A stretch of DNA of 59,372 bases, from positions 1-59,372 of the forward strand of contig CAZGKJ010000002.1 in the NCBI GenBank assembly GCA_964525955.1, written 5' to 3'. The translations under genes were made by a program, and so were the position numbers. Each line of letters starts with the position of its first letter. The first letter of the stretch is position 1. The notes under the pieces are model-generated. The model ran no database searches. It was not told the DNA's origin and was given only the letters and a program-made list of their open reading frames with translations. Shown here piece after piece: positions 21,311-40,434 of this stretch. Source of the stretch: an uncultured Candidatus Bathyarchaeia archaeon (GTDB lineage: Archaea; Thermoproteota; Bathyarchaeia; TCS64; B23).

Positions 21311-21318
21311 TTATAAAT
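21311..21318 (+). promoter_or_regulatory. TATA box candidate for the island operon
   Basis: ttataaat lies about 27-34 nt upstream of the ATG at 21345, consistent with a leaderless or short-leader archaeal transcript. Confidence 0.45.
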
Positions 21319-21344
21319 CAGCGCTGTATTAAATTTTGTATAGG

Positions 21345-21740: not shown

Positions 21741-21741
21741 A

Positions 21742-21870
21742 ATGAATGACAATAAAATTGTTACTTTTAAAATAAAGGGAGACACTTACGAGTTAGAAAT
21801 TAAAGGAACTTTATCTGAATTGACGTCTGAAATAGATAACATAATTTTCTTTCTAAAAAAAATTAAATGA
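21742..21870 (+). CDS. 42-codon ORF, probably the N-terminal part of the following wHTH gene (break at an A8 run)
   Basis: The ATG lies 2 nt after the previous stop. The product is MNDNKIVTFKIKGDTYELEIKG... Removing one A at 21855-21862 fuses it in frame to 21893..22195, which itself lacks an ATG start. Confidence 0.4.
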   Translation: MNDNKIVTFKIKGDTYELEIKGTLSELTSEIDNIIFFLKKIK

Positions 21871-21892
21871 AAAATTACAATCATCTGGCATA

Positions 21893-22195
21893 TTGGAGGA
21901 GATTTCACCTGAGGAAATACCAACAGTAGAAGAAATAGAAGAAGCCCCAACAGAGGAAATTCCAGTAATAAGGCCCTCTAGAAGTACGATGGAGAATATA
22001 ATGGCACTTTTTGAACAAGATTGGGGCAAAAAACCAAGATCAGTGGCTGAGGTTATGAAAGCTCTTGAGGTTAATGCAGTACCGGACCATCCTGCAGCTG
22101 TTTCAACATATCTACGTAGATTAGTTAAAAGGGGATTTTTAAGAAGAATAAAGAAAGATAATTTATGGCATTATTATAAACTTCCAAGCACTTAA
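21893..22195 (+). CDS. winged-helix DNA-binding protein with acidic EEI-repeat linker
   Basis: The C-terminal SVAEVMKALEV...AAVSTYLRRLVKRGFLRRIKKDNLWHYYKL is wHTH-like. Only a TTG start is available. Confidence 0.6.
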   Translation: MEEISPEEIPTVEEIEEAPTEEIPVIRPSRSTMENIMALFEQDWGKKPRSVAEVMKALEVNAVPDHPAAVSTYLRRLVKRGFLRRIKKDNLWHYYKLPST

Positions 22196-22196
22196 G

Positions 22197-22793
22197 GTGG
22201 CTAGTTTGACGGGGCATTTAGCTCCGTATATCGGTAGCTCTGCTGAAAGAGACGTTAAAAAATTATTAGAAGCCTTAGGATACTCAATATTGCGAGAGAA
22301 TGTGATACATCCTAACATAGATAAGGTTATTAAATTTATTGGTATACCTAAACCTGAGCCACAAAACCAATGTTTTTTACAAAAACCAATTTTTTCTCCT
22401 CCATCTGAAGATATAATCGCAGTAAGTATAAAACAAAGAGATATAAGAATATCTGATATAAAGCAGCTTCTAGAAGATATTGAAGAAGCGAAATTATGTG
22501 AAGACCCAACGTTGCATAATATAAGTTCTGGTCTTATCATCACAAATTTTACTAAATTACCAAGTGAGATCAATCGTTATTTTGAAATGGGAATTTATTG
22601 TTGGGATTTACGTAGATTATTTTTTTACGCTTCTAAGATTAATAGACTGAGACATATGTCCTCTATAGGGCCTGTTAGAGAATTTATAATAGATTCACCA
22701 TCATTAAATATAAAAGCATCATATCTTAGATTATTGAACCCATCATATGAATCTAAAAAACACAATCGTGGGAAAATTCGTAATTTTTATTGA
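22197..22793 (+). CDS. Mrr-like restriction endonuclease (PD-(D/E)xK) domain protein
   Basis: AERDVKKLLEALGYSI, then DIIAVSIKQRD and then GLIITNFTKLP...IYCWDLRRLF follow the Mrr_cat order of motifs. A GTG start lies 1 nt after the previous stop. Confidence 0.55.
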   Translation: MASLTGHLAPYIGSSAERDVKKLLEALGYSILRENVIHPNIDKVIKFIGIPKPEPQNQCFLQKPIFSPPSEDIIAVSIKQRDIRISDIKQLLEDIEEAKLCEDPTLHNISSGLIITNFTKLPSEINRYFEMGIYCWDLRRLFFYASKINRLRHMSSIGPVREFIIDSPSLNIKASYLRLLNPSYESKKHNRGKIRNFY

Positions 22794-23079
22794 TGAGCAT
22801 GATAGCGAATTTATTTATAGTGCTGATCACCATACAGAAGTATTAGAATATATTTATAGTAAAGAGATAAAACCTATGATAGAACAAAGAGACTTCAATG
22901 TATATTCACAATTTGAGGTGCATGTATTAGGAAAAGCTGCACCAGAATTAATAAGAAACTCTTATATAGAGTTCTCTAGGAGGTACTTACGCTCCAATGA
23001 AAAAGGAATAGGAGCGCTATTTGCTGCGGATATTCCAATATATCAATATGGGGTATCTCCTTGGAGCATTTTAATTTAA
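22747..23079 (+). CDS. hypothetical protein, possibly the C-terminal continuation of 22197..22793 (break at an A6 run)
   Basis: The overlap is 47 nt. Deleting one A at 22755-22760 joins ...NPSYESK to NTIVGKFVIFIDEHD in frame. Confidence 0.45.
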   Translation: MNLKNTIVGKFVIFIDEHDSEFIYSADHHTEVLEYIYSKEIKPMIEQRDFNVYSQFEVHVLGKAAPELIRNSYIEFSRRYLRSNEKGIGALFAADIPIYQYGVSPWSILI

Positions 23080-24160: not shown

Positions 24161-24451
24161 CGATAGATGATTCCCCCCACCGGTTAAAGCGTTGTCATCA
24201 CCGTTAGCCCCGCAGGTTATAGGGCTGTGCTCTCAAAGGGTTGAGGCTCCCTGGTGGTCGCATCACCGAAGGAGCTGGCGGAGGAGAAGCGCATCGGAGG
24301 GGACATATAGACGCCTACGCCTGGATGAGTATCTAAGGGAAGCGGGGCTACGATCCACATGCTCCGTTAGGGTCTCCGCCGACAAGTCCATAAGCGATGT
24401 TGAGAGACCCATCGGAACTCACCCTCCACTGGAAATATCAATTTGCCCACA

Positions 24452-27229
24452 TTAGGGAGGGACTTTATGGCGGCTATAATATTCCTCCTCGATGGGGCTG
24501 ACGTACATCGAATAGAGGAGGCTGGGCCTCCTCCAGGCGATGATGGCGAGGGCTATCAGGGAGATGAGGCTGATGAGGTATCCAGCCTTCTCTGGGAGGG
24601 AGAGGTCATAGATTAAAATCACATCGGCGGGGGGATCAAACTCCGGAAGGGGGATATACATCATCCCTGGACCAGCCATGTAAATTTTAAGATTGGTTTT
24701 ATGGCTGCCCTCGACGAGGATGGCATGCCACTGCTTGAAATAGCATTCTTTAAATAATATTCCATCCGCTATCTCATTGAGTTTTATAATTCTCCTCTGA
24801 GGATTTATAAATTGATAATCATAATCTAATTCATCATTCTTTTCTATCCCCTTAAGCCACCTCAGTATTCTAACTATAAATTTAGCCTCCTCCGAATTTC
24901 TGAAGCTTTTGGTGTGGTAGAAGAGGTTCATACCAGACCAGACGACCCTCCCCCTTCCATACTCCCCAGCTACGATGATCGGCTTACCCTGCGCACAGAT
25001 TATCGGCGCCGCCCACTCAGCAGTCTCAATGGTGGAGGAGACACCCCAGCCGAACTCCCCATAGCGAGGAGGTGAAAAGAGTGTGAAGTTCACTCCATCA
25101 GAAATGGGATGGGGGGAAACCTCAAACAACCAATCCTCCATTATGGATGAGGTATGCGTCTCCCTCACCGGAAACGGATCCGGAAGGGCTTCAGCTGCGA
25201 AATCTGGGGAGCCGTTGGCCTCTAAAAATAGGCAGCCCCCCTCATAGACATAAGCCGAGAGGAGCTCAGCCATCCGTTTGAGACTTTTATACTTATATCC
25301 ATAGAGGATTAAGAGGGGGAACTCCCTCAACTCCTTTAAGGTATAAGAATCTACAAGTTCCCTACCTAGAAGAGGTATGACGTAATCGCTTCCCAGACCT
25401 GTGATGCTTAGAGCTCTTAGGAAAACATCATACTTCTCCCTCGAACCGATAAAGAGGATGGGAGTTGTTTTAGTTGAATAAGCGATCCTAGAATAATTCA
25501 AATATTCAAATACACACCACACCCCCCTCTTCAAAGTCAAATTATAAGGCCCCCCATCAAATAATCCACATTCATTCCCTTCAGAAACAATCCATCTAAT
25601 TGCATACCAATCCAATAAGAAGTAAGCTTCATAAGTTTTAGGACGAACCCAAACCGTTTTCTCAAACCAGCTTTTCCAATAAGCATATGGAACACCCTGA
25701 TCATAATAATCCCTAGACTGTGGAACATCAAAATAATAATTAAACCATATAGCTATACTAGCATTCTTAATCCCAATCCTATATTGAACATCATTTCCTA
25801 TATTAAGACCTTCAGCTAAATAAGGCTTAAAATTCAACCCACCCCTTAACCTTATTTTCATTATGTTAAACCCTATTATTGGAGTCTCCAATATAAATCC
25901 AATTGTAATACATAATAGTAAAATGAATATTTTGATAGCTCTTTTTAAATCTTTATTAATTTTGACATTTTTAAATAATATGTTTAGAGAAAAGACTACA
26001 TATAAGCTGACACCTAAAATTGAGATACTATTTGGATGTTCCGGCCCAAATCCTGAAATATATAGGTTTCTTGGATAAAATTTGATATATCCCATATAGC
26101 TGTATATTAGAAGTATTATAAAGTATATGAGGGATGATATATTCCAAGCTTTTAAATTTTTATCCGAAGTTTTTCCTAAATATTTTATATTTAATATCGT
26201 TAGTATTATGAACATAGGAAATATTATGCAGAAGAGATCTAAGTGAGATGGCGTATATATTAGATATGATAATTTAGCTGGATCATAATTTACTCCTCCA
26301 ATTAACATTTTGCTTGCTCTATTTGGATTTGAAAATAGGAATTGCATAATGTATAGCATATTTAGAGGAAATATTATTAAAATTAATTTGAATATGTTTA
26401 ATAATGAATGTAGAAGGGATTTTCCTTTGAATATTAAAACTCCAAATATTAATGCTAATGCGGTTAAACCTCCTATTATATGTGTTAATATGCTTAAAGT
26501 TAATGATATTGGGAAAAGATATAGAGCTAATCGATTTATTCGCTTTTTATTATATATTAAGTTGAATAGATAGAGGGATAGACCAGCAAAGCCTAGTGAT
26601 AATACTCTAGCATATGTTCCAACTACGAACCAAAATACCCAGAAGGCTGGGGTGAATATTATTAACATTGGTCCCATCATCGTTAGGATTTCATCTTTCG
26701 TTACATCATATATTAGGGCTGATATGCTTACCATGAGAAGTATTATTGATGCTGTTGATAATATGTTTATTGAGTATTCCACTGGTATGTTGAATAGTTT
26801 GGAGGTTAAGGCTATCATAAAGTAAGATAATGGTGGGTAGGTTCCGCCAAAAATGGGGACTCCAAAGTCCCATTGATAATTCCACCAAAAGTTAGGGAAG
26901 TATTTAAGTATGTATTTTGCTTTGTAGATATGAGCATAGGCATCGCATCCTCTTGGAAAGGCTATTATTGGAGATGTTCCAACTATGAAGATAAAAGTGA
27001 AAACTGCTACAGCAGTATATATTACTAGGGATCGATATGCCCCTATTTTAGATGGCTTCGATACCGTCCTCACCTTCACCCCCCGGCGACTCTTGAAGAG
27101 TTGTAGTAAATCCTTAAGATCCCCCAATGATATTCCAGATCTATAGGCCATCTCTACGTGTCTGAAGCCGGTGTCATAGTCTCCGGCGTCGTAGTAGGCC
27201 CAGGCTAATGCGTAGTGGGCCTCACCCAT
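24452..27229 (-). CDS. large polytopic membrane protein with N-terminal TPR-like fragment and C-terminal soluble domain (GT-C-like glycosyltransferase is a guess)
   Basis: A 925-aa uninterrupted ORF. EAHYALAWAYYDAGDYDTGF is TPR-like, followed by more than 12 hydrophobic helices and then a soluble region of about 350 aa. No WWDYG motif was seen. Confidence 0.6.
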   Translation of the reverse strand: MGEAHYALAWAYYDAGDYDTGFRHVEMAYRSGISLGDLKDLLQLFKSRRGVKVRTVSKPSKIGAYRSLVIYTAVAVFTFIFIVGTSPIIAFPRGCDAYAHIYKAKYILKYFPNFWWNYQWDFGVPIFGGTYPPLSYFMIALTSKLFNIPVEYSINILSTASIILLMVSISALIYDVTKDEILTMMGPMLIIFTPAFWVFWFVVGTYARVLSLGFAGLSLYLFNLIYNKKRINRLALYLFPISLTLSILTHIIGGLTALALIFGVLIFKGKSLLHSLLNIFKLILIIFPLNMLYIMQFLFSNPNRASKMLIGGVNYDPAKLSYLIYTPSHLDLFCIIFPMFIILTILNIKYLGKTSDKNLKAWNISSLIYFIILLIYSYMGYIKFYPRNLYISGFGPEHPNSISILGVSLYVVFSLNILFKNVKINKDLKRAIKIFILLLCITIGFILETPIIGFNIMKIRLRGGLNFKPYLAEGLNIGNDVQYRIGIKNASIAIWFNYYFDVPQSRDYYDQGVPYAYWKSWFEKTVWVRPKTYEAYFLLDWYAIRWIVSEGNECGLFDGGPYNLTLKRGVWCVFEYLNYSRIAYSTKTTPILFIGSREKYDVFLRALSITGLGSDYVIPLLGRELVDSYTLKELREFPLLILYGYKYKSLKRMAELLSAYVYEGGCLFLEANGSPDFAAEALPDPFPVRETHTSSIMEDWLFEVSPHPISDGVNFTLFSPPRYGEFGWGVSSTIETAEWAAPIICAQGKPIIVAGEYGRGRVVWSGMNLFYHTKSFRNSEEAKFIVRILRWLKGIEKNDELDYDYQFINPQRRIIKLNEIADGILFKECYFKQWHAILVEGSHKTNLKIYMAGPGMMYIPLPEFDPPADVILIYDLSLPEKAGYLISLISLIALAIIAWRRPSLLYSMYVSPIEEEYYSRHKVPP

Positions 27230-27378
27230 ATGGGGGTCGATTTCGAGACATCGCCTCCCTCATCAAATGGAGTCTGTCGCCGCTGAGAACGAGGCCCTAC
27301 AGGAGGCCCTAAGAACTCACTTCGAGAGGTTGTTGGTTTCGGCTGGAGGCGGCGTTTTGAAGCCGGTGATGAGTTGCT

Positions 27379-28443
27379 TCACATCCTCTCCTTCTCATAT
27401 TCCACCTGGACGGTGAGGATGCTGCGGAGGATTCTCCGTTCGGGTTCATCTCGGTCTATCCAGCCGGAGAGGTTGATGTGTTCTATGCCTCCGCCTGGGT
27501 TGTTTATGGCTTTGAAGAGTATTCGTTCTACCTCTTGGATGAGGTCTCGGCGCAGCCGTTCAGGTGTATAGTTGGCCTCCCTCTTCCTGAGCACCCATAT
27601 TGAGAGCTGTATATGCTCTCTGATGGCCTTGTGCCGTGCCCCTATGTCGAGGACTGTGGCTCTGGCTCCTGCGACGGGGCCTACGGTTATCTGCCAGTCG
27701 GCCTCCTTGAATATGTGTTCATCGGGCCATGCTGCTGATATCCTTCCTGGAATCGGCTTTCCCTCGTCGTCGTAGACCTTCACCCCGTCTTCTGGGTCTG
27801 AGAGTAGGTTGACGATGAGCTTCTTCGGGTCTATGCTCCATGAGGCCTCTATCGTTGTGGGGCTGTGGAGCTCTACTGTGAGTCTCAATAGGCCTGTCTC
27901 TGGGTTGTAGCTGTATGTCTTGGCTCCCCGTATGCCTATGGGTTCTCCCAGGTCTGCGCAGTCTATTATGAGCTGCGCCGACAGGCCTTCGGGGCCGTCT
28001 ATCGTCATCCTCATCCATCTTGAAGTGGCATCGTATCTCGCATCCTTTACGGCTCCACCTTGTATTGCTGTTATCAGGGGCTTCCTCCTCGGAGTCGATG
28101 AGAGCCTTATCTTGAGGGTCTTCCCCACCAGGGTTAGGGGGTCTATGAGGAGGCTGTTTAGGGGTTTTCCATCGAGGGTGGCACTCTCTATGTGGTATGG
28201 GTCTGTGAAGTCTGTGCTGAGAAGCGTGCCGCCTCCACCATCCTGGACGGTGAGGCTGTCGACGTATATGTAAGGCGTCTGATCAGCGGATTTAAAGGCT
28301 GATATGCCTATGAGGCCAGTCCAGAGGGGGAGGCCATCGTAGGTGAGGATGACCTCTCCATTTACCTTGAGGGTTAGGCTCTCCCCTTCAGCCCTCAATT
28401 CTATTTCATGGAATTGGCCGTCTGCTGGGAGCTGGTAGGCCAC
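27379..28443 (-). CDS. hypothetical beta-sandwich protein; N-terminal LamG/DUF1080-like fragment, C-terminal region reminiscent of phage neck/tail-completion proteins
   Basis: GTG start. FHEIELRAEGESLTLKVNGEVILTYDG is a lectin-fold-like strand pattern. The assignment of the C-terminal IQLSIWVLRK...ILRSILTVQVEYE pattern is weak. Confidence 0.5.
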   Translation of the reverse strand: MAYQLPADGQFHEIELRAEGESLTLKVNGEVILTYDGLPLWTGLIGISAFKSADQTPYIYVDSLTVQDGGGGTLLSTDFTDPYHIESATLDGKPLNSLLIDPLTLVGKTLKIRLSSTPRRKPLITAIQGGAVKDARYDATSRWMRMTIDGPEGLSAQLIIDCADLGEPIGIRGAKTYSYNPETGLLRLTVELHSPTTIEASWSIDPKKLIVNLLSDPEDGVKVYDDEGKPIPGRISAAWPDEHIFKEADWQITVGPVAGARATVLDIGARHKAIREHIQLSIWVLRKREANYTPERLRRDLIQEVERILFKAINNPGGGIEHINLSGWIDRDEPERRILRSILTVQVEYEKERM

Positions 28444-28506
28444 CTCATCCAGTAATGTCCATTTGTCATTCTCCTTCTTATACAGCCTTGTGAGGCCGTC
28501 AGGAGG

Positions 28507-30306
28507 GTGGTGGAGGATTTCCCAGAGATTTCCACAAGCTGTGTTAAGCCTCCCTCAGACCCTGACTGCGTCGGCCTATGGCACCTCGATGAGGGGGAGG
28601 GCTCTATGGCTGAGGACAGCAGCGGAGGGGGTCACGACGGCTCTATCAGCGGAGCTACATGGGTTGATGGACGATACGGTAAGGCTCTCCACTTCGATGG
28701 AGACGACACCGTTGACTGCGGAGACATAGATGAGATAGATGGAGTCTCGGAGCTGACCGTCGAGGTATGGGTTAGGGTTCCAGCGGATGCCGGTGGGACG
28801 AGGGAGTTTATCCGTAAGGATGGCGTCTTCGCCCACGGCTTCGGCTGGTCGGCTAATAGGCCGAGATTCTGGGTTTACTTCACAGATATAGGATGGAGGA
28901 ACAGTGGAGACGGCCCAGAGATAAATGATGACCGGTGGCATCACATAGTCGGAGTCTACGACGGCCAATACATACGCATATACGTCGATGGAGTTGAGAG
29001 AAGCAGCAACAACGTAGGCCCCCATCCAGTCGCCTCAAATGCAGCTCATGTCCACATAGGAAGCTGGGATGGCTCAGCAGAGTTCATGATCGGAGACATA
29101 GACGAGGTGGCATTATACAGCAGAGCCCTAACAGCCGAGGAGATATGGGAACACTACTCCAAGGGCCCAGCGCCAGTGAACATCTCAAAGACCTACATCG
29201 AAAGCCATAGGGCTGACATACTCGACCAATTGGCCTCAATAGCCTCAAAGGCCACAGGGAAAGCCTGGAGCTGGAGACTCGGATATGGGCAAGACCTATG
29301 GTTCAGACCCCGAGATGAGGGCCCCCTATGCTCCTCGACGATCCAGGAGGGGGTAAACCTCCTTACAGGAGTCCGCCGAGGTCGAGACCTCTATGAATTG
29401 GCTAATAGGATCATAGTTCTCAGCGGCTTCGTCCTCTATCCTTTTGAGGATCTATACTGCGAAGATGTCAGCCTCTGGAGCATAGAGTGGTGTGGACAGT
29501 GCACATCGCCAGCCCTGCAGAATGATGACAACTCTAAGGAGGGAGACTACGCCATGATGATCTATGATGACACGCTGAACTGGTGGAGGGTCGCCCGAAG
29601 CATACCCAGCATAGACCTCACAGGATACAAAGGCCTAAGGCTGTGGTTGAAGATAAACGGCTCATGGAGCGGGGCCAGTAGCGACGAGATAACGATAAAG
29701 TTTGGCACAAACAACTCTAACTGCTACTATAAGGCTGTGAGGCTCGGCGTAGGCATCAACGAGTGGGCGCACATCGACGTGGAGCTCAGCAGGTTTGGGA
29801 AGGCTGGGAACCCAGACCTCAGCGATGTAACCTGGATAGCTCTCGAAGCCGTATGGCCCAGCAACCTATACGGAAACGTCACATGGGATGGATGGCACTG
29901 GTATGCCGAGAACCTGAAAGTTGAGGTCAGAGACGGCTCCTCGGAGCTGCCGGAGCACACCTACGTCTATAAGGATGCACGGCTGAACCGCCTTGAGCTG
30001 CTCCGAGACCTGGCTCAGGGCCTACTGGAAGCGATGAAAGCAGCCTCAGACCGAATATTGCTGCCGGTCATAGGTGCACCAGACCTCCAGAGGGGTCGAA
30101 GAGTCCAGGTTGAGGCCCCCAGCTTAGGGCTGAGCGGCGTCTACATCATCGCCGAGGCTGAGCACAGGCTCAACCACAGCGAAGGATACATCACGAGGGT
30201 TCTCCTGGAGAGCAGCCGCTATGCCCTGACCTCCGAGCTGAGGAGGCTTCTGGAACGGGAGCTCCGACTGGAGAGACGGGGAGACTTGGAGGTGATCATC
30301 ACATGA
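28507..30306 (+). CDS. LamG (concanavalin A-like lectin) domain protein with CBM-like middle domain and tail-protein-like C-terminus
   Basis: The LamG_3 pattern runs GLWHLDEGEGSMAEDSSGGGHDG...GKALHFDG...ELTVEVWV...WHHIVGVYDG...IYVDG...IGDIDEVALYSRALTAEEI. The middle DLTGYKGLRLWLKING...WAHIDVEL is CBM-like. The C-terminal part is GRRVQVEAPSLGLSGVYIIAEAEHRL. Confidence 0.8.
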   Translation: MVEDFPEISTSCVKPPSDPDCVGLWHLDEGEGSMAEDSSGGGHDGSISGATWVDGRYGKALHFDGDDTVDCGDIDEIDGVSELTVEVWVRVPADAGGTREFIRKDGVFAHGFGWSANRPRFWVYFTDIGWRNSGDGPEINDDRWHHIVGVYDGQYIRIYVDGVERSSNNVGPHPVASNAAHVHIGSWDGSAEFMIGDIDEVALYSRALTAEEIWEHYSKGPAPVNISKTYIESHRADILDQLASIASKATGKAWSWRLGYGQDLWFRPRDEGPLCSSTIQEGVNLLTGVRRGRDLYELANRIIVLSGFVLYPFEDLYCEDVSLWSIEWCGQCTSPALQNDDNSKEGDYAMMIYDDTLNWWRVARSIPSIDLTGYKGLRLWLKINGSWSGASSDEITIKFGTNNSNCYYKAVRLGVGINEWAHIDVELSRFGKAGNPDLSDVTWIALEAVWPSNLYGNVTWDGWHWYAENLKVEVRDGSSELPEHTYVYKDARLNRLELLRDLAQGLLEAMKAASDRILLPVIGAPDLQRGRRVQVEAPSLGLSGVYIIAEAEHRLNHSEGYITRVLLESSRYALTSELRRLLERELRLERRGDLEVIIT

Positions 30307-30458
30307 TAGAGTTCCTAAACGTGATCATCGCAGCTCTGGCGGGCTTCGTCTTGGGCTTAGCGGTTCACTCAGCCTATGTTCACAGCAAGAAGAGGGGGGA
30401 GCTGGGGCCTATGCCCTGGGATCACCCGGATGGAGGGGAGGGGGATGAGGAGGGTTAG
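30303..30458 (+). CDS. small single-pass membrane protein (51 aa)
   Basis: Its ATG shares an ATGA overlap with the LamG gene stop. The product is MIEFLNVIIAALAGFVLGLAVHSAY followed by a charged tail. It is below the ORF-track size cutoff. Confidence 0.4.
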   Translation: MIEFLNVIIAALAGFVLGLAVHSAYVHSKKRGELGPMPWDHPDGGEGDEEG

Positions 30459-30846
30459 CTTGGGGGAGCTTCGTAGGGGTGACCTCATCCTCGTCCGGTG
30501 GATCGACGCCAGCGATGTTAAGGCTCCGTTGAGGGAGCATGAGGCTAGGCCTGAGGTCTATGTGAAGAATTGGGGCGTATACCTCGGCGTCTCTGGTAGG
30601 CGGAGGAGGATGATGCTCCTGGGTAAGGATGTGGTGGAGGCTCAGGGGGAGTGGGGTGCGACGAGGATACCCCTGGAGCTCATCGAGGAGATCATACTCC
30701 TCATGCCCAGGGAGGAGACATCGAAGGCGATTGGGGAGGTTCTCAGCATCACGAGGAGGGTGAGGCTGAGGAGGTTTCAGTATAGGAACTCCGACTGGGT
30801 GAGGCTCCATGCTCGACTGGTTGAGGAGGATGCTGACCAGGCGTAG
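30445..30846 (+). CDS. hypothetical protein (small beta-rich domain)
   Basis: The internal ATG at 30445 (MRRVSLGELRRGDLILVRWID) is preferred because it overlaps the preceding small ORF by 14 nt. Confidence 0.5.
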   Translation: MRRVSLGELRRGDLILVRWIDASDVKAPLREHEARPEVYVKNWGVYLGVSGRRRRMMLLGKDVVEAQGEWGATRIPLELIEEIILLMPREETSKAIGEVLSITRRVRLRRFQYRNSDWVRLHARLVEEDADQA

Positions 30847-31072
30847 AGTCATAATAGATGAAGAGGCCCCGAGGAGGGTTAGGGTCATAGAGGAGGAGGC
30901 GAGTGAAAGCCTCGTCTACACAATAGCGCTGACACTTCTCATCCTCCTCGCCCTCTCAATCCTCGAAGCCCTCTACCTACTGACATTCCATCAGTGGAGC
31001 GACTCAATCTTCAACGGAATAATGCTCGTCATCGGAACAGTCCTCGGAGCCCTATGGGGGAGACATGGATGA
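30809..31072 (+). CDS. small two-helix membrane protein
   Basis: A charged N-terminus is followed by LVYTIALTLLILLALSILEALYLL and IMLVIGTVLGALWG. Its stop shares an ATGA overlap with the next start. Confidence 0.5.
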   Translation: MLDWLRRMLTRRRVIIDEEAPRRVRVIEEEASESLVYTIALTLLILLALSILEALYLLTFHQWSDSIFNGIMLVIGTVLGALWGRHG

Positions 31073-32570
31073 GGCTTAGAGCCAAAACAACGGCGAGAAT
31101 CAAACAACGTCGATGGGATGCCCAGCGAGGCTGCTACGTCTACACCATAGAGTTCTCAACTAAGACGCCTCTGACGGAGCGCACCCTGAAGGTGGCTGAA
31201 GCCTTCGGCCTCGGCGTAGACGAGGAGCATAGGTTCACAATCTATCGAGACTTCGAGCTCCACCTTAAACGGGGAGACATAGTATACATAACCGGAGACA
31301 GCGGAAGCGGGAAGAGCGCACTACTAAAAGCCATAAAGGCTGACCTCGGAGACAAAGCCATAGACATCGATGAAGTCACATGGGATGAGGACAGACCCCT
31401 CATAGATCAGATCGGAGACAGCTTCCAGGAAGGCCTTAGGCTGCTATGTCGAGTCGGCCTAAACGACGCATTCCTCTTCCTCCGAAAACCCAGGGAGCTG
31501 AGCGACGGACAGAGGTATAGGTTCAGGCTTGCGAAGCTCTTAGAGGCCCAGAAGCCCTACTGGATATGCGACGAGTTCTGTAGCACCCTCGACCGCACAA
31601 CAGCCAGGATCGTCGCATATAACATTCAGAAGCAGGCTCGAAGAGTCGGAGCCACCCTAATCGCTGCGACGACGCACACAGACTGGAGGCCGACCTAAAT
31701 CCCTCGATACGCATACACAAGGGCTGGGGAGAGAAAGTCAGCGTAGAATATAGAGCCAACAGGCCCGCTGAGAGGTGCAGCGTCGTAGAGGACATAACCA
31801 TCAGGGAAGGCAGCCTCAGAGACTATCATCGGCTCAGCCATCTCCATTACAGGCATACGGGGAGGCCTGGAATCCCCATCAAAATATACTGCATGGAGAG
31901 GGGGTCAGAGCTCATAGGGGTCATCGTCTACGCATATCCAGGGCCAACAGCTAAGGGTCGTCGAGAGGCCGTCGGATACACGCCGAGTCTGAAGGAGCTC
32001 AACACCGAATGGGCTGTCATAAGCAGAGTCATCATACATCCCAAATATCGAAGCATAGGCCTCGGCATACGCCTCGTTAAGGAGACCCTGCCCAGGGTGG
32101 GGAGACGCCACGTGGAGCTCATCGCTGTTATGGCTCAGTATAACCCCTTCGCCGAGAAGGCCGGAATGAAGCTGATAAGGATTCAGAGGCCCCATCCATC
32201 TGTTTGGGAGGCAATCGAGAGACTTAGGAAGCTGGGCTTCGATCCAGTTCTCATGGCCTCGGAACGCTACAATCTCCATAAGTTGAGGAGGCTGAGGCCA
32301 GAGGCCTTAGAGGCTGTGCGTGATGCCTTGCTGGGTGTGGCGCCCTACCTGTATAGGAGGCTGATAGCCACAGATCGATTTGGAGCCTTCGTCAGGAGGC
32401 GTCAGATGAGGGAGTGGCTTGGCGAGGCTGATTTGGAGGCTTTATCGAGATGCCTCAAAAGGCTTAATGTTCTGAGTCAGACGAAGGCCTACCTATACTG
32501 GTGCAGAGACTGGATGGAGGGTGGGGAGTCTCATGTTAATGGATCCATTAACATGATTGAAAAATTATAA
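31069..32570 (+). pseudogene. ABC-type ATPase fused to GNAT acetyltransferase domain (COG2401-like architecture), interrupted by a 1-nt frameshift near 31681-31685
   Basis: Walker A is GDSGSGKS, the signature is LSDGQRYR, Walker B is YWICDEF and the H-loop is ATTHTD. The protein then continues in the -1 frame as LEADLNPSIRIHKGWGEKV... into GNAT motif A, HPKYRSIGLGIRLV. Confidence 0.7.
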
Positions 32571-32581
32571 CGGTGTTATAG

Positions 32582-32827
32582 ATGAGGGGCTACATCTTCA
32601 CGGATAGGGAGAGGGAGCTTCTTGAGGGGTGGCTGGAGTCTGGGGTGGAGACTCCGACTCTTAGGGTTCTCTTCCATCAGATGGGGAGGTCTACGAGGCG
32701 TCTCATCTCAGATTTAAGGCTTTTTGTCAGGGTGGCGAGGAGGCTTAGGGCTTTGGGGAGGTGGGCTGGGAGGCCTTCGAGGGCGGAGTTGAAGCGCCTG
32801 TTAATGGAGGTGGTGGAGGATGAGTGA
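32582..32827 (+). CDS. hypothetical small basic protein
   Basis: An 81-aa Arg-rich helical protein, co-directional and overlapping the next ORF by 8 nt. Confidence 0.45.
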   Translation: MRGYIFTDRERELLEGWLESGVETPTLRVLFHQMGRSTRRLISDLRLFVRVARRLRALGRWAGRPSRAELKRLLMEVVEDE

Positions 32828-33077
32828 GCTGGTCATAAGGCTGAGGAGGGTTCGAATAGAGCCTGAGAGGGAGAGGGAGAATCTCATAAACAGGTTGAAG
32901 ATAATCATCAGGAGACTTGAGAGGTTGATAGAGAACCCCAGCACACCAACCAAAATCCGGTTGAGAGCGATAGACACCCTCACCAGGGTCATCAGGATGT
33001 GCTACACCATGATCAGGGATGTGGAGATCGATAGCCTTGAGCGAGAGATTGAAACGCTTGAGGAAGAGGAGACGTGA
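32820..33077 (+). CDS. hypothetical coiled-coil protein (position compatible with a small terminase subunit)
   Basis: An 85-aa protein with heptad-like R/E/I/L content, immediately upstream of and overlapping the large terminase. The function is inferred from position only. Confidence 0.35.
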   Translation: MSELVIRLRRVRIEPERERENLINRLKIIIRRLERLIENPSTPTKIRLRAIDTLTRVIRMCYTMIRDVEIDSLEREIETLEEEET

Positions 33078-34437
33078 ACTAATAGAGAGGAAGAAGCTGA
33101 AGAAAGCGAAAATAAAACTCCCAACAGACCCAGTAGAGTTCTGCGAGAAGATACTCCATATAAGGCTGACAGGCTATCAGCGGAGGCTCCTAAGGCTTCT
33201 GGCTGAGGGCCATAGACGGATAGTTCTCAGATGGGCGAGGCAGACGGGTAAGACCTACATACTGGCTGCGGTTCTCATCTGGTATTGCTCAACGCATCCA
33301 GGCTCCACAGCCCTGATAGTTGCTCCAGGATTGAGGCAGAGCCTGATACTAAGCGACAGGATACACGGCCTACTGAACCAGATGGAGCCGAGCATCAGGA
33401 GGGGCGTCATCGAGAAGGCTCTTAGAACCATCATAAGATTCAGAAATGGCAGCCAGATCGTTGCACTCCCCAACAGCGAGCACCTATTGAGGGGCTATAC
33501 GGCTCATCTGGTCATCTGCGATGAGGCAGCCTTCTTCCACAACGATGAGGCCATCTTCCCCCACATCCTAATGCCCATGATGGCGACGACAAATGGCATC
33601 ATGATCGTAAGCAGCACACCCTGGGGAAGGAGATCAATCTACCATCAACTAAACCAAGACCCAGATTGGGTTTTGATCCACGTCCCCTGGACAGAGGCGG
33701 TTAAAGAGGGCATATACAGCAGAGAATTCGTCGGGGAGATTGAGAAGCTGAGGGAGACGAGGCCACAGGCATTCAGGATGGAGTATGAAGCCGAGTTCAT
33801 AGAGGATGAGGAGGCGTGGCTGAGCCAAGACCTACTGGCCAAAGCCATAGACGAGGAGCTTGAATACTACCGCATAGAGGACAGAGCCAAGGGGCAATTC
33901 TATATGGGTTTAGACCTCGCAGAGCGGAGAGACTACACAGCCATCGCAGTCATACAGCGGGAGGGGCAGCTGCTCAAGCTGGTTCATAGGCATAAATTCC
34001 CCCTCGGAACAGGCTTGGCGGCGGCCATAGGATACATAAAAACCCTAAGAGAAAACTGGAATGACATAAGGAAGATCTACGTCGACATAACGAAGCATGG
34101 AGACTACTTCATACAAGACATGCACGAAGCCGGAATACCGGAAGCAGAGGGCATCATATTCACACAGAGAAGAAAACAAGAGATGGCCCAGCTACTGAGG
34201 CAGAGAATACAGGAGGGAAGGCTACGAATACCCTACGACAGAGAACTCCTAAACGAGCTGAACATAGAGAGATACGAGCTAACCAAGACGGGAGCCATAA
34301 GGTTCTATCACCCAGAGGGGACACATGACGATCAATTCTGGGCGCTCGCCTTGGCGGTCTATGCGGCGGAGACGGAGGCAATACCGAGGAGGCCGAGAAT
34401 CTCGGTTAGGAGGCTCTTCGATGGGGGTATTCGCTGA
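33019..34437 (+). CDS. terL: terminase large subunit (TerL) ATPase-nuclease
   Basis: Blocks are YQRRLL, Walker A WARQTGKTY, Walker B HLVICDEAAFF, coupling motif VSSTPWG, RNase H-like nuclease Asp MGLDLAERRDYTAIAV and C-terminal GTHDDQFWALALAVYAAE. Confidence 0.9.
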   Translation: MWRSIALSERLKRLRKRRRELIERKKLKKAKIKLPTDPVEFCEKILHIRLTGYQRRLLRLLAEGHRRIVLRWARQTGKTYILAAVLIWYCSTHPGSTALIVAPGLRQSLILSDRIHGLLNQMEPSIRRGVIEKALRTIIRFRNGSQIVALPNSEHLLRGYTAHLVICDEAAFFHNDEAIFPHILMPMMATTNGIMIVSSTPWGRRSIYHQLNQDPDWVLIHVPWTEAVKEGIYSREFVGEIEKLRETRPQAFRMEYEAEFIEDEEAWLSQDLLAKAIDEELEYYRIEDRAKGQFYMGLDLAERRDYTAIAVIQREGQLLKLVHRHKFPLGTGLAAAIGYIKTLRENWNDIRKIYVDITKHGDYFIQDMHEAGIPEAEGIIFTQRRKQEMAQLLRQRIQEGRLRIPYDRELLNELNIERYELTKTGAIRFYHPEGTHDDQFWALALAVYAAETEAIPRRPRISVRRLFDGGIR

Positions 34438-34873
34438 GGAGCTTTACACGCCCCCTATGCTTCCCGCTTAGGGCCTCTATGAGCTTCTCATCAGCCGTGT
34501 ATAGGGTTGTGTTCAGCCTCTCGGCGAGGGCGACGTAGGAGGCGTCGTAGATGGTTAGATTGTTCTCCAAGGCTATCTTGGCTGTTAGCCTGGCGTATTC
34601 GCCTTTAAGCCCGTAGAGTTTGAAGCCGTAGAGGGAGAGGCTCTCAGCTATATCCATCAGCCTCTCAGCCTCCAATCGATCGGTGGAGTATCTAACGGCG
34701 TTCAACACCTCAAAAGGCATGAGGGCCGGAGCCGCCAGCTCGACTTTGCCGTCGATGTAGTCCTCCCTGATCCTCAGCGCCTCCTCTCGATCGGGTTCGA
34801 GGACATACCACTTGACGACGACGCTGGCGTCAACAACAAGCTCAGCGCCTCCCCCTCCACCTCCTGATCTCAT
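34406..34873 (-). CDS. vapC: PIN-domain toxin (VapC)
   Basis: LVVDASVVVKWYVLEPD and TLYTADEKL are typical of VapC. Its 3' end overlaps the terL 3' end by 32 nt, convergently. Confidence 0.8.
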   Translation of the reverse strand: MRSGGGGGGAELVVDASVVVKWYVLEPDREEALRIREDYIDGKVELAAPALMPFEVLNAVRYSTDRLEAERLMDIAESLSLYGFKLYGLKGEYARLTAKIALENNLTIYDASYVALAERLNTTLYTADEKLIEALSGKHRGRVKLLSEYPHRRAS

Positions 34874-35069
34874 CTACACCCCTCCAACCGGCCTTGGGCC
34901 TGATGAGGCTCCGCTCATTCAGGAGGACAGCCTTAGCGAGATTCCTAAAACCCTCACCCTCCAAAACACGGTGGATAGCCTCCCTGATAACCCCACTCCA
35001 ATTTATATGACTCAAACGCTCCATCCGACGCTTAGTCTCCTCATCCACCCTAACGGTGACCACAGGCAT
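34842..35069 (-). CDS. vapB: RHH (CopG-like) antitoxin (VapB)
   Basis: MPVVTVRVDEETKRRMERL...WSGVIREAIHRVL. Confidence 0.75.
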   Translation of the reverse strand: MPVVTVRVDEETKRRMERLSHINWSGVIREAIHRVLEGEGFRNLAKAVLLNERSLIRPKAGWRGVDEIRRWRGRR

Positions 35070-35105: not shown

Positions 35106-35165
35106 ACATGGGAGTTAAGCTTTAAGGTATTAGCTAATAATGTCAAGTAATTATTGGGGATCACA

Positions 35166-36225
35166 ATGGCCGAGAAGGGGGGTCTCGTCGTCTGGGCGGC
35201 CCTCTTCATCATCGGCCTCCTCATAGGCGTCGGAGCAGGCTATGGAGTCGCAGCCTCAACCTACGGCAGGAAGATCAAGGGCTATGAGGAGAGGGTCTCA
35301 GAGCTTGAGAAGACGAAGACAAGCCTCGAAACCAAGGTCTCGGAGCTCCAGAGCGACAAGGAGGAGCTGCTGGAGATGGTCGACGAGCTGAAGGAGACCC
35401 GTGAGGATCTGGAGTCAGAGATCTCTGAGCTTAGAGCAGAGGTTGAGGAGCTGGAGGGGAAGGTTCCAGCAGACCTCTGGGACCTCTACTTCAAGTATAT
35501 CAAGCCTAAGAAGTTCGTCGACCTAACCCACAGCTTCAGACCCGGCATACCACACTGGCCAGGCTTCCCAGACTCCAAGAGGGAGATACTATACTGGTAT
35601 GAGCCAGGCGTGGGAACCATGGGCTCAGGATTCTACGCAGAATACTTCTGCCATGTCGGCCAGTGGGGAACCCACTGCGACCCCCCCAGCCCACTTCATA
35701 AAGGGCCTGATGACCATCGACGAGCTTCCGGTCAAGTGGATGGTTCTGCCCCTCGTAGTCATCGACGTCCATGAGAAGGTGGCTGAAAACCCAGACTACG
35801 TGTTGACGGTCGACGACATAAAGGCCTGGGAGGCCAAATACGGCCCAATACCGGAGGGAGCCTTCGTTGCCATGAGGACCGACTGGTCTAAACGGTGGCC
35901 TGACATGGCTGCGATGAGAAACGAGGATGCCGAGGGCGTAGCCCACTATCCAGGCTGGACGCTGAGCGCCCTCAAATATCTCTTCGAGGAGAGAAACGTA
36001 ACAGCCATAGGCCACGAGCCGACGGACACGGATCCAGGGGTCAACACAACCAGGGGCATATACGCCTGCGAATCCTATGTGCTCTCCCTCAACAAATACC
36101 AGATAGAGCTCCTAACAAACCTAGACAAGGTTCCGGAGTATGGAGCCCTAGTCGTCGTCACATGGCCTAAACCGGAGAATGGGTCAGGGTTCCCAGCGAG
36201 GGTCTTCGCCATAATCCCAGGATAA
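35166..36225 (+). pseudogene. membrane-anchored coiled-coil protein fused to cyclase/kynurenine-formamidase family domain, split by a frameshift in a C7 run (35681-35687)
   Basis: A TM helix is followed by the SELEKTKTSLETKVSELQSDKEELLEMVDELKETREDLESEISELRAEVEELEG coil and then DLTHSF. Reading the C7 run as C6 restores HVGQWGTHCDPPAHFIKG, matching the HxGTHxDxPxH metal-binding motif. Confidence 0.7.
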
Positions 36226-36289: not shown

Positions 36290-36556
36290 ATGGATGGGAT
36301 GGAGACCCTGGTCAGGGTGGATAGGAGAGGGAGGATCGTCATACCTAAGGCTGTGAGGGAGCGCATCGGATTGGGGAGGATGGCCAGGCTTAGAGTTGAG
36401 GGGGGGAGGATCACAATCGAGCCCGCCAGAAATCCCCTCGAAGCCTTAAGGAGGACGGTGAGGGTGAACATCACCGACGTGGAGGGGGAGCTCAGGGAGT
36501 TGAGGAGGGAGGCCGAGGAGCAGCTTAAGAGGGAGGCCTCAAGGCGTTGGCGATAG
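36290..36556 (+). CDS. vapB: SpoVT/AbrB-type antitoxin (VapB)
   Basis: LVRVDRRGRIVIPKAVRERIGL. Confidence 0.8.
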   Translation: MDGMETLVRVDRRGRIVIPKAVRERIGLGRMARLRVEGGRITIEPARNPLEALRRTVRVNITDVEGELRELRREAEEQLKREASRRWR

Positions 36557-36969
36557 TCGAAACAGACTTCATAATAGCCCTCCTAAACGAGAGGGACCGC
36601 CTCCACAGGATTTACATAGAGATAGCGGAGGAGGATAACCTCACCCTCTCCCCCTACACCCTCATAGAGGTTGAGATGCTATGGCTCTCCAGGAGGCTCA
36701 TAATAGAGGATTATGAAGCCTTCCAGAGACATCTCAACGACCTCCTCGAATACTACTCGATAAGGCTAATGACAGACAAACCCAGATACCATGCAGAAGC
36801 CCACAGACTGAGGAGGGAAAACAACCTAACCTACTTCGACAGCCTACACGCAGCTGCAGCCCTCACAGAAGACCTAACCCTCATAAGCTCAGACCCTATA
36901 TACCGCAGGGTGGAAAACCTAAAACACCTACACCCAACAGAATGGCGGGGCAGACGCCAATACCTATAA
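36547..36969 (+). CDS. vapC: PIN-domain toxin (VapC)
   Basis: MAIVETDFIIALLNERD, YFDSLHAAAAL and LISSDPIY. It overlaps vapB by 10 nt. Confidence 0.8.
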   Translation: MAIVETDFIIALLNERDRLHRIYIEIAEEDNLTLSPYTLIEVEMLWLSRRLIIEDYEAFQRHLNDLLEYYSIRLMTDKPRYHAEAHRLRRENNLTYFDSLHAAAALTEDLTLISSDPIYRRVENLKHLHPTEWRGRRQYL

Positions 36970-36994: not shown

Positions 36995-38008
36995 ATGAGG
37001 GGCAGAATCAAGAGGCTGAGGGTCAAAAACCTACTAAGCCTCAGAGACGTAACCATAGACTTCGGAGAAAAACTCACAGTCCTCGTAGGCCCAAACGCAG
37101 GAGGAAAAAGCAACATAATAAAAACATTAGAAACAATAAAAAGAAGCGTTGAATTCCAACCTAATCAAAAATTTCTTTTAAGCCTTTTAAAAATCGATTT
37201 TAAAGAGTTTATATTTGGAGGGGACACAAGAAAAGAAGGGCTCATTCAATTAGATGGGGTTATGAATGGAAAAGATTTTGAGTATGAAGCTAATCTATTT
37301 AGAAAGATTCCATTTGAAGATTACATTTTTTGGAAGCAAGAGTCTGATGCTGCTTCGTTCTTAGGTAAAATGGGATTTTATTCCTTTGTCCCTCAATCTA
37401 TATTGAATGAAGTTGAGATGGAGGAAGGCCCTATTTTATCCAGAGATGGATCAAATCTCGCAGGTCTCCTTGCTTATCTTAAGCTCACAGATTATAAGCT
37501 GTTCCATTCTATTGAGGAGAAACTTATGAGTTATGTCCCAGAGATTGAGGAGATCATATTATTTCCTAAAACTATTAAAGAAAACGCTGTGAAGAAGGTT
37601 TATCGAATATGCATTAGAGAGAGGGGATTTAAGGAATCCTTCACCAATATTTCGGATGGGACCCTAAGGCTTTTGAGCTTCGTTACGGCTCTAAGCCTTA
37701 ACCACTCTCTCGTAGCCTTTGAGGAGCCTGAGAACTGCATTCATCCCCATCTCCTGGAGCTCCTCGTTGATATGATGCGTAAGGCTGATTGCCAAGTCGT
37801 CATCACGACGCATTCACCCTATCTCCTGGATTATGTTGAGCCGGAGGAGGTTGTTGTTGTCTGGAGGGAGATGGGTGAGGAGGGATTGGAGACCAAGGTG
37901 AGGAGGCCCTCAGAGGAGGAGCTTGAGAGGGTTAAGGCTCTATTGAGAGATGGTTGGACTCTCGGGGAGGTCTGGTGTTCGGGGGTTATAGGGGGAGTCC
38001 CTGAGTGA
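36995..38008 (+). CDS. ABC/SMC-like AAA ATPase (AAA_21/OLD-family ATPase type)
   Basis: IKRLRVKNLLSLRDVTIDFG, Walker A GPNAGGKSN, signature-like SDGTLRLLSF, Walker B LVAFEEPENCIHP and ITTHSP. The core of the gene is AT-rich. Confidence 0.85.
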   Translation: MRGRIKRLRVKNLLSLRDVTIDFGEKLTVLVGPNAGGKSNIIKTLETIKRSVEFQPNQKFLLSLLKIDFKEFIFGGDTRKEGLIQLDGVMNGKDFEYEANLFRKIPFEDYIFWKQESDAASFLGKMGFYSFVPQSILNEVEMEEGPILSRDGSNLAGLLAYLKLTDYKLFHSIEEKLMSYVPEIEEIILFPKTIKENAVKKVYRICIRERGFKESFTNISDGTLRLLSFVTALSLNHSLVAFEEPENCIHPHLLELLVDMMRKADCQVVITTHSPYLLDYVEPEEVVVVWREMGEEGLETKVRRPSEEELERVKALLRDGWTLGEVWCSGVIGGVPE

Positions 38009-38535
38009 TCGGCATCGTCGTCGAGGGGCCGACGGATAAGGCGGCAGTTGAGACGATATGTAGAAGGCTTAGAATTCGATGTGAGGTGAGGTTCGCAAAA
38101 AGACCAGGGGGAAATGAGCCTAAAGCGATTAATAGCTTGATAAGACGGGAATTCCTCCCCATGGGAGCCGATAAGGTGATAGTCCTAAAGGATGAGAAGG
38201 CTTCACCAGGCGTATTAGAAACCATTCGAAGAATCATAAGAGAAACCCAAGACCTGATCGAGACGGAGCTTATAGTGATAAAGCCCGAGATGGAGGCCTG
38301 GCTCCTCGCAGACCCAGAGGCCGTCGAGAGAGTTCTGGGCCATAGACCGAGGATCAGGAACCCTGAGGAATGCGAGAATCCGGTGGATGAACTGGATAGA
38401 ACCGCTATGAGATGCGGTAGAAGATATATGAAGAGTCCAAAGCTTGTGCATAGAATCGTCGAGGAGATGGATTTGGAGAGGGCTAGGGAAAGATGTAGCT
38501 CCCTCAACCTCTTCCTCAGAAAACTCACCTCATAA
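38005..38535 (+). CDS. small TOPRIM-like protein (DUF4276/RloB/AriB class)
   Basis: A GTGA start-stop overlap joins it to the ATPase gene. The N-terminal IGIVVEGPTDKAAVETI matches the TOPRIM conserved Glu strand. A later acidic VIVLKDEK and EMEAWLLAD follow. Confidence 0.55.
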   Translation: MIGIVVEGPTDKAAVETICRRLRIRCEVRFAKRPGGNEPKAINSLIRREFLPMGADKVIVLKDEKASPGVLETIRRIIRETQDLIETELIVIKPEMEAWLLADPEAVERVLGHRPRIRNPEECENPVDELDRTAMRCGRRYMKSPKLVHRIVEEMDLERARERCSSLNLFLRKLTS

Positions 38536-39797: not shown

Positions 39798-40046
39798 ATG
39801 TATTTGTCTGAGGAAGCCGTCATAGGTAAGAGGGGGGTTCTAGTCATCCCGAAGGAGATTAGGGAGAAATTGGGCTTGAAGGAGGGGAGGAGAGTCCTCA
39901 TAGGAGTTGAGGGAGGTAAAATCATCATCGAGCCACTGCCCAGCGATCCCTTCAAGGTTCTGGAGGAGGTTATCGGCGAGCCTTATAGGGAGGAGGTGGA
40001 TGAGGAGAGGGCTATGAGGTGGATGAGGGAGCATGCCGGTCGCTGA
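39798..40046 (+). CDS. vapB: SpoVT/AbrB-type antitoxin (VapB)
   Basis: VIGKRGVLVIPKEIREKLGLKEG. Confidence 0.8.
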   Translation: MYLSEEAVIGKRGVLVIPKEIREKLGLKEGRRVLIGVEGGKIIIEPLPSDPFKVLEEVIGEPYREEVDEERAMRWMREHAGR

Positions 40047-40434
40047 CACGGATCTCCTATTCGCTCTAAATCCAATCGATCCAAAACATGAGAAGGCTCT
40101 GAGAAGCGTCAAAACCATAGAGGGGATAGTGGCGCCAGATACGGCCCTCCTAGAGTTCCAATTCGTCCTCAGGGGGAGGGGGAAGAGTAGAGATGAAATC
40201 AAATACGCCCTACTAGCCCTCCTAGAAATCCTGAGGAGATATGGGATTAGAGAGGTGAAGACCATTGATCTCAAGCTCCTAGCTCTACAATTGGAGTTAG
40301 AGGAGCGCTATGGATTAACCTACTTCGACAGCCTCATAGCTGCCTCAGCCCTAATTCAAGATGGAGCCGTCATCTCCGACGATAAAGCCTTTGATAAGGT
40401 AGAGGGGCTACGTAGGATACCTATCTCCAAATAG
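40033..40434 (+). CDS. vapC: PIN-domain toxin (VapC)
   Basis: MPVADTDLLFAL, YFDSLIAASAL and VISDDKAF. It overlaps vapB by 14 nt. Confidence 0.8.
   Translation: MPVADTDLLFALNPIDPKHEKALRSVKTIEGIVAPDTALLEFQFVLRGRGKSRDEIKYALLALLEILRRYGIREVKTIDLKLLALQLELEERYGLTYFDSLIAASALIQDGAVISDDKAFDKVEGLRRIPISK

Follow-up and report, generated by a model that had tools for sequence, protein, structure and literature searches.

The window examined here, a 59,372-nucleotide (nt) stretch of an uncultured Candidatus Bathyarchaeia archaeon (positions 1 to 59,372 of contig CAZGKJ010000002.1, assembly GCA_964525955.1), contains at 27379–34437 a block of virus-derived genes that ends in a complete large terminase gene (terL). 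We find that this block is very probably what is left of a siphovirus-like tailed provirus (Caudoviricetes type), grounded and internally deleted, in a Bathyarchaeia chromosome. Its lack of a capsid is the outcome of deletion and ordinary decay, and not the mark of a designed capsid-less module. An earlier reading of the DNA, which we call the original prediction, had left two options, a heavily decayed provirus or a packaging enzyme retained with its neighbours as a host module. It is the first of these that stands: the block is collinear with larger viral elements, contains a junction of truncated genes and a frameshift, and has counterparts at the same locus, L019 and L103, that are eroded further. 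Nothing indicates that the remnant forms particles or packages DNA.

Contigs of relatives were fetched and compared with the window, and these loci carry L numbers below (L001, L007 and so on). Set against them, the remnant and its boundaries resolve into the following features, given from left to right, with open reading frame shortened to ORF.

24452–27229, minus strand: PTPS_related membrane protein gene (925 aa), left flank, outside the element; 42% identity to the PTPS_related/TPR gene beside the intact element of L013.
27250–27309, plus strand: final ~20 codons of a PHP-domain gene, left boundary; 75% identity to residues 208–227 of L013 PHP232 (tblastn, E = 2e-4).
27379–28490, minus strand: remnant of a divergently transcribed gene (~350 codons; ORF 27379–28443, 354 aa); 56% identity to residues 729–1077 of L013 GH92_1078.
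28485–28500, no strand: deletion junction, with ~10.5 kb missing relative to a composite of L013, L007 and L001.
28507–30306, plus strand: LamG tail fibre/baseplate-type protein, 5'-truncated; Laminin_G_3 1.1e-28, weak CBM_11 0.057, PHROG 8510 (virion structural protein) 2e-14.
30303–30458, plus strand: 51-aa membrane protein with one hydrophobic helix (x47 family); 88% identity to L001 x47, ATGA overlap with the upstream gene.
30445–30846, plus strand: 133-aa conserved protein (x122 family); 69% identity to L001 x122; an alternative start lies at 30376, and homology favours 30445.
30809–31072, plus strand: 87-aa membrane protein with two hydrophobic helices (x87/x67 family); 41% identity to L001 x87, ATGA overlap with the next gene at 31069.
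31069–32570, plus strand: broken ABC-ATPase–GNAT fusion gene (COG2401-like; PHROG 293 and 886); 77–83% identity to the intact 497-aa protein of L001.
32582–32827, plus strand: 81-aa helical protein (x73 family); 38% identity to L001 x73, with a near-identical 81-aa ORF at the same position in L009.
32820–33077, plus strand: 85-aa coiled-coil protein, candidate small terminase subunit; homologues lie directly upstream of terL throughout the family.
33019–34437, plus strand: large terminase subunit (TerL), intact ORF; Terminase_6N 5.9e-9 and Terminase_6C 2.3e-11, both above Pfam cut-offs, and PHROG 2 8e-40.
34406–35069, minus strand: PIN toxin gene and RHH antitoxin gene, right flank, outside the element; 87–92% identical to L001 in the same order, and also present in the flank of L019 and L103.

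The genes from 28507 to 34437 are co-directional, overlapping ORFs on the plus strand (ATGA overlaps at 30303 and 31069, other overlaps of 8–59 nt), with a host-like G+C content of 0.52–0.59 against about 0.55 across most of the window. ORF and family searches bear out this layout as originally predicted, together with the LamG, ABC and TerL domain calls and the completeness of TerL, whose Walker A, Walker B, SST and nuclease Asp residues are all conserved. The predicted ABC-ATPase–GNAT fusion holds as a gene family but not as a single ORF in the window, and the predicted LamG protein and divergent gene with a neck-like C terminus hold for their domains but not for their intactness, both being 5'-truncated fragments. 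Searches against Pfam, PHROG and NCBIfam return no portal, capsid, protease, tail tube, integrase or replication family in the block, which agrees with the prediction made for it and its flanks. The capsid proteins of L005 and L036 as tblastn queries gave zero matches in the window, where the Portal_Mu protein of L005 is likewise unmatched, and a hidden Markov model (HMM) search seeded with the capsids of L005, L036 and L100 detects no capsid there. Nor does the window match the tail tube and tape measure of L001, L007 and L013. The longest unassigned ORF of the block reaches at most 133 aa, no portal or capsid is found among the small ORFs, and the block is truly capsid-less. Genes at 12.7–24.2 kb are ordinary cellular genes.

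The viral origin of the block is best read from its fuller relatives. The TerL copy in L001 (GCA_054042865.1) is 82–84% identical to that of the window, and its neighbourhood shares with the window the genes from LamG to TerL and the right flank. Upstream of its LamG gene, L001 carries two small genes, a 714-aa tape measure (PhageMin_Tail; PHROG 991, 4.7e-44) and an HK97-gp10-like/Neck1 gene (1.7e-25). L006–L010, from other Bathyarchaeota metagenome-assembled genomes (MAGs), repeat this order, and L007 adds two tail-tube paralogues. The left end is supplied by L013, in which PTPS_related and PHP genes are followed by minus-strand genes for a 1078-aa GH92 protein and for a 118-aa protein with a weak match to the head closure protein Hc1, and then by plus-strand genes up to the tape measure. 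The parent element is about 19 kb long and is conserved in Bathyarchaeia MAGs.

Slightly more distant members of the family include head genes. In L099, where the tube protein shows 80% identity to the L007 query, an inverted Hc1/neck module has immediately to its left a gp6-like connector and, matching PHROG 1650 at 2.1e-9, the C-terminal portion of a major capsid protein. L036, with an ABC–GNAT protein 60% identical to that of the window, carries a PF05065 capsid (26.2 bits against a cut-off of 24.2) ahead of connectors, tail genes, ABC–GNAT and terL. Cement and capsid genes lie upstream of the tube gene in L100 (capsid PHROG 1650, 5.6e-10), and L005 combines terL with Portal_Mu, Mu_F and capsid genes. 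Because these four loci bear capsid and/or portal genes, the family is one of siphovirus-like archaeal proviruses with heads. An iterated HMM search for capsids in further loci recovered only the three seeds (L005, L036 and L100), in a set where a 10-kb flank limit around the fetched loci conceals the head modules in most. Portal matches that the iterated search gave in a compact IMG/VR group were set aside, as their identity is not trusted.

Pieced together from these contigs, the gene order of the family begins with head genes (cement, HK97-type major capsid, gp6-like connector) and a pair made up of a head-closure and an enzyme/neck gene, in either orientation. There follow two membrane/lectin proteins, the tube, an Ig-tube, a chaperone-like protein, Neck1 and the tape measure, and then two small genes, the LamG fibre/baseplate protein and three small proteins, two of them in the membrane. 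The order closes with, sometimes, a DNA methyltransferase, and with ABC-ATPase–GNAT, two small helical proteins (the second likely the small terminase) and TerL as the rightmost gene.

The window retains both ends of the L013/L001-type element without its middle, since its left side matches L013, where the order is PTPS gene, PHP gene and GH92-neck gene, and its right side holds the L001-type gene set. The divergent gene, which by itself has no match in Pfam, PHROG or NCBIfam, is the 3' third of a GH92-lectin-neck gene. Its parent encodes a virion protein of about 1078 aa with a GH92 glycosidase, a ConA-like lectin, a beta domain and a C-terminal neck domain, and the catalytic N-terminal ~700 codons are deleted in the window. 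The C-terminal 150 aa are 60% identical to a stand-alone 150-aa neck protein of L099. On the other side, the LamG protein aligns to residues 233–835 of the 836-aa L001 orthologue with 74% identity. At the DNA level, the match with LamG836 of L007, L009 and L010 starts at 28484–28490, and the minus-strand match with the L013 GH92 gene ends at the same place, so that the two divergent genes abutting at 28485–28500 are both 5'-truncated. The ~10.5 kb lost here comprise the ~700 GH92 codons, the Hc1-like gene, two lectin/membrane genes, a winged helix-turn-helix (wHTH) gene, a toxin–antitoxin pair, two tube genes, the chaperone-like gene, Neck1, the tape measure, two small genes and 232 LamG codons.

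The neck-domain protein is fused to, or sits beside, a different large N-terminal protein in each relative (L013 3742–6978, L012 5606–7270, L099 2022–5221, L036 2294–4148). Its partners are GH92 plus a ConA-like domain in L013, BNR_4 in L012, a separate beta-helix protein in L036 and a separate 916-aa protein with no family match in L099, which suggests swappable neck appendages, several of them putatively carbohydrate-active.

At the right end, the window matches L009 as far as 34372, 65 nt short of the terL stop codon, which places the junction between element and flank inside the 3' end of terL. To the right of terL lie cellular or otherwise non-viral genes in every case checked (L009, L024, L031, L032 and L104), which makes terL the last gene of the integrated element; the same genes rule out a head module on that side. 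The right flank common to the window and L001 consists of PIN, RHH, cyclase, MazE/PIN, AAA_15 and DUF4276 genes and two RNase P subunits. Att-like direct repeats, a check suggested with the original prediction, were searched for at ~27.3 versus ~34.4 kb and not found, and the window contains no tRNA or Rfam feature.

Close homologues of the window TerL number in the hundreds, at 47–92% identity, in Bathyarchaeia and other archaeal MAGs. In L036, a duplicated fragment of the TerL C terminus (residues 412–447) lies at 14440–14547, about 1 kb downstream of the intact terL, and the TerL tail differs between the window and L009; together these hint at the terL 3' end as a recombination or integration site. 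Solitary TerL paralogues, 53–55% identical and with all catalytic motifs intact, occur in large Bathyarchaeia contigs (L002 10001–11440, L004 10001–11386) with an ORF of 168–187 aa upstream and no other viral gene nearby, and one of them belongs to the L001 genome, in a region rich in PIN toxins.

The second lesion of the window copy affects the ABC-ATPase–GNAT gene, which is split into two ORFs in different frames, 31069–31698 and 31893–32570. The cause is a 1-nt deletion near 31681, where the window reads GACTGG and all seven relatives examined read GACCTGG. The first ORF retains the ABC domain (ABC_tran 9e-12, PHROG 293 1.6e-33) with conserved Walker A, signature and Walker B motifs (GDSGSGKS, LSDGQ and WICDEF). 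The second matches PHROG 886 at 5.5e-12 and gives weak GNAT matches in Pfam, at 6e-4 and worse and under the cut-offs; relatives of the protein carry PF00583.

Erosion of the element is least in the fuller copies (the L013/L007/L001 composite and L102), further advanced in the window and furthest in L019 and L103. In L102 almost all of the element remains, with its tape-measure and wHTH genes each split. L019 and L103 are two independent assemblies of the window's own chromosomal locus, with DNA 82–90% identical. Both are without the segment corresponding to window positions 24292–31216, their ABC–GNAT gene is 5'-truncated and their terL is internally deleted. Ratios of nonsynonymous to synonymous divergence (dN/dS) between the window and L001 are 0.15 for TerL, 0.12 for the ABC half, 0.14 for the GNAT half and 0.20 for LamG. 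Against L009 they are about 0.1, and among the tail genes of L012 and L013 they are 0.14–0.35. Given low dN/dS (0.09–0.20) and intact TerL motifs, the genes were functional until recently. The pattern fits past purifying selection followed by a recent grounding of a formerly active virus.

The comparison yields a sequence of events. The head module had already gone in the window's lineage, as L013 and the window both show; the window copy then lost the ~10.5 kb that separated the GH92-neck and LamG genes, and its assembled sequence also has the 1-nt deletion in the ABC–GNAT gene. Several observations weigh against reading the block as the remnant of a decayed provirus. No integrase, att repeat or tRNA target was found. 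The 'intact' reference combines contigs of different MAGs, with the left end of L001 outside the compared sequence. L013 is head-less and yet has intact tail genes, so a functional head-less stage is conceivable, and both the frameshift and the junction at 28.49 kb are known from assembled sequence alone. Synonymous divergence (dS) is 0.75–1.3 in element genes as against 0.3–0.6 in flanking genes, and the x73/x98 cassette, the two small genes upstream of terL, exists in two allelic forms; for these two reasons the history of the element is not purely vertical.

Of the alternatives, the one that survives best, improbable as we consider it, is an exapted host module, in which TerL, ABC–GNAT and the small ORFs were kept for a cellular or defensive function after loss of the virus. 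This was the second option of the original prediction, and the one that would have made the block an undescribed system. The low dN/dS of TerL and ABC–GNAT (0.09–0.15) would suit it, but such values are equally expected if most of the divergence arose while the virus was active. The catalytic motifs of TerL are intact, and the segment from ABC–GNAT to terL is the last survivor in three decayed copies (window, L019 and L103), yet the survivors are themselves breaking down: ABC–GNAT is frameshifted in the window and truncated in the other two, where terL has also suffered its internal deletion. The neighbours include toxin–antitoxin genes and a candidate defence pair, HEC-01, and solitary intact TerL paralogues exist in Bathyarchaeia chromosomes; PADLOC, however, gives the block no defence model match beyond a generic P-loop. 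Furthermore, the gene set is indeed conserved as a unit in other genomes (L001, L007, L009 and L010), but as part of viral genomes, complete ones among them, and the retained-module option is not supported.

Less probable still, and in our view very unlikely, is a functional head-less element (satellite, tailocin-like or gene transfer agent-like) made of tail, connectors and terminase, with a capsid borrowed or absent and the window as a damaged copy. L013 does end at its GH92-neck gene beside cellular PHP and PTPS genes, without capsid or portal and with intact tail genes, and the dN/dS of the L012 and L013 tail genes would accord with their being in use. This left end is documented by L013 and the window only, and in the close relative L099 the same inverted module is bordered on its left by a capsid and a gp6-like connector. 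L012 was weighed as a second head-less example and rejected, because at its left edge it has a wHTH gene whose homologue in L099 comes after the capsid region; L012 therefore does not speak for a head-less design. The set is accompanied by no integrase or replication genes, the tail genes are decaying in L102, and the connectors Hc1 and Neck1 imply a cognate head. The weakest alternative, a chimeric or error-containing MAG contig, is one to which we give hardly any credence: the sequence is apparently from a MAG and a second gene (the cyclase at 35154–36225) also looks split, but the two sides of the 28.49-kb junction lie in one syntenic neighbourhood (the left matching L013, the right L001, L019 and L103), independent assemblies have other deletions at the same locus, and the cyclase is split in L103 too.

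An iterated HMM search over the fetched loci and the window recovered x122, for which family searches give no match, in 127 of 185 sequences, and the x87/x67 family always comes after it. The 85-aa ORF has no family match either, and from its position is likely the small terminase subunit. Its homologue in L097 is the C-terminal part of a fused 261-aa protein, x261 (14292–15077), which stands between the methyltransferase and terL in place of the ABC–GNAT gene; ABC–GNAT is thus not universal in the family.

Where ABC–GNAT is present, its link to terL is close. A profile scan of Joint Genome Institute (JGI) metagenomes gave 345 relatives. We fetched 80 ABC–GNAT loci, 57 of them with enough flank to judge, and terL is adjacent and co-directional in 51 of the 57, two small genes downstream in 18 loci and immediately upstream in 33. 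The protein database holds at least 2148 relatives, and a profile scan places the gene on at least 233 IMG/VR viral contigs, unlike a scan of IMG/VR with a single ABC–GNAT protein as query, which gave no match. Split homologues occur in 86 GenBank phage records. Pseudomonas phage nickie (L096 3383–9423) has, in this sequence, ParB-like, methyltransferase, ABC, small ORF, GNAT part, small ORF, DNA-binding protein, terL, portal, hypothetical and capsid. In Salmonella phage SSU5 (L095 4653–7797) the linear record has at its right end separate ABC and GNAT genes with two ParB-like genes before them, and terL was not seen within the stretch examined. L001 and L097 carry a methyltransferase in a position equivalent to that in the bacterial phages. 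The annotation in the bacterial phages is 'ABC transporter'.

Structure adds to this picture. An AF2 model of an intact relative 94% identical to the window (pLDDT 88, pTM 0.82) has an N-terminal half that resembles MacB/LolD-type ABC nucleotide-binding domains, which dominate a PDB fold search that gave no full-length match. The best viral fold match, in BFVD, is a Leptospira phage 'GNAT family' protein (3e-20), followed by weaker matches to small GNAT-like phage proteins that include Mom. Searches of NCBIfam and PDB sequences return generic ABC transporter ATPases only, and no function is given by a curated family, a solved structure or the literature. On the strength of gene neighbourhoods, we describe ABC–GNAT as a widespread, uncharacterised accessory of the terminase module, and its linkage to terL points to a role tied to packaging. 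The protein may link the binding or hydrolysis of ATP to the transfer of an acyl group, either to viral DNA or to a packaging or virion protein. We put forward tentatively, as an idea with odds against it, that it is a functional partner of the terminase module in archaeal and bacterial tailed viruses, an ATP-dependent acyltransferase acting on the packaged DNA or on a packaging or virion protein, of which the window remnant would be one trace. A weaker variant would have hosts selectively keep the terL/ABC–GNAT end of such proviruses for their own use.

In TmcA/NAT10 RNA cytidine acetyltransferases, a P-loop NTPase is joined to a GNAT acyltransferase whose target is a base in a nucleic acid. 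Their architecture is analogous to that of ABC–GNAT, with a helicase-type NTPase in place of the ABC-type nucleotide-binding domain, and may serve as a functional lead only; the NCBIfam, PDB sequence and PDB fold searches yielded no sequence or fold match between them and ABC–GNAT. Closer in kind are nickie and the SSU5-like phage-plasmids, whose ABC and GNAT proteins are homologous to the window family (34–41% identity over 71–88% of the protein). In nickie the module stands where it does in the window family, with a small DNA-binding gene, terL, portal and capsid directly downstream, and in nickie and SSU5 a ParB-like or DNA methyltransferase gene precedes the module, comparable to the methyltransferase of L001 and L097. 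In these phages of about 100–112 kb, the ATPase and GNAT are separate genes with a small ORF between, whereas in the window family they are fused.

As for the element itself, Bathyarchaeia tailed proviruses have been described as BATPV1, BATPV2, 'Fuxiviridae' and 'Kunpengviridae' (PMC11705971, PMC10848311). The window shares with them the host class, chromosomal integration and Caudoviricetes-type morphogenetic genes, namely a Terminase_6-type TerL and Neck1/gp10-like, tape-measure and HK97-type capsid genes, the latter ones in its relatives. Unlike those proviruses, the window copy retains the distal third of the morphogenetic operon only. One defective Bathyarchaeia provirus, rich in antitoxin genes, has already been reported, and defective proviruses are poorly described in archaea (PMC11705971). 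Bathyarchaeia tailed proviruses, defective ones included, are an already known class (PMC10848311, PMC11705971); the ABC-ATPase–GNAT gene is mentioned in neither paper.

Tailocins and gene transfer agents resemble the window in being virus-derived chromosomal gene sets that miss part of a viral genome. Tailocins have a tube, a baseplate and, in F-type ones, a tape measure without terminase, whereas the window has a terminase without tube or tape measure, and gene transfer agents keep capsid, portal and terminase under host control, whereas the window is without capsid or portal. Phage satellites of the PICI (phage-inducible chromosomal island) or P4-like type carry their own integrase, a replication/primase module and packaging-redirection genes, none of which family searches found in the block or its relatives.

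Other features of the window lie outside the element. At 36995–38535 lie genes for an AAA_15/AAA_21 ATPase of 337 aa and a DUF4276 protein of 176 aa, for which PADLOC gives matches to its candidate defence system HEC-01 (A 2e-44, B 1e-14); the stretch that holds the ATPase gene is low in G+C content (0.42). The cyclase-family gene at 35154–36225 consists of two overlapping ORFs (206 and 208 aa) where L001 has one 345-aa gene; the split is probably real and not a sequencing error, as L103 has it too. Three PIN-type toxin–antitoxin pairs lie within 6 kb right of the remnant (34406–35069, 36290–36969 and 39840–40434). Sharp islands of low G+C content (0.31–0.41 against a background of 0.55) occur at 6001–7000, 21001–23000, 25001–27000 and 57001–58000. 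The 21–23 kb island is missing from the orthologous locus in L019, and the 25–27 kb island is the PTPS_related gene, which occupies a stretch of 0.31–0.40.

The analysis removes a candidate 'undescribed system' from the window, where a decaying provirus lacks its capsid by deletion. As by-products it yields a documented erosion series of one archaeal provirus locus over several metagenomes and a fused ABC-ATPase–GNAT gene whose tight linkage to terL extends over hundreds of archaeal viral contigs, with split homologues upstream of terL in nickie. The most useful lead is this accessory of terminase modules, as yet uncharacterised and shared by viruses of both domains, which is testable in culturable phages.

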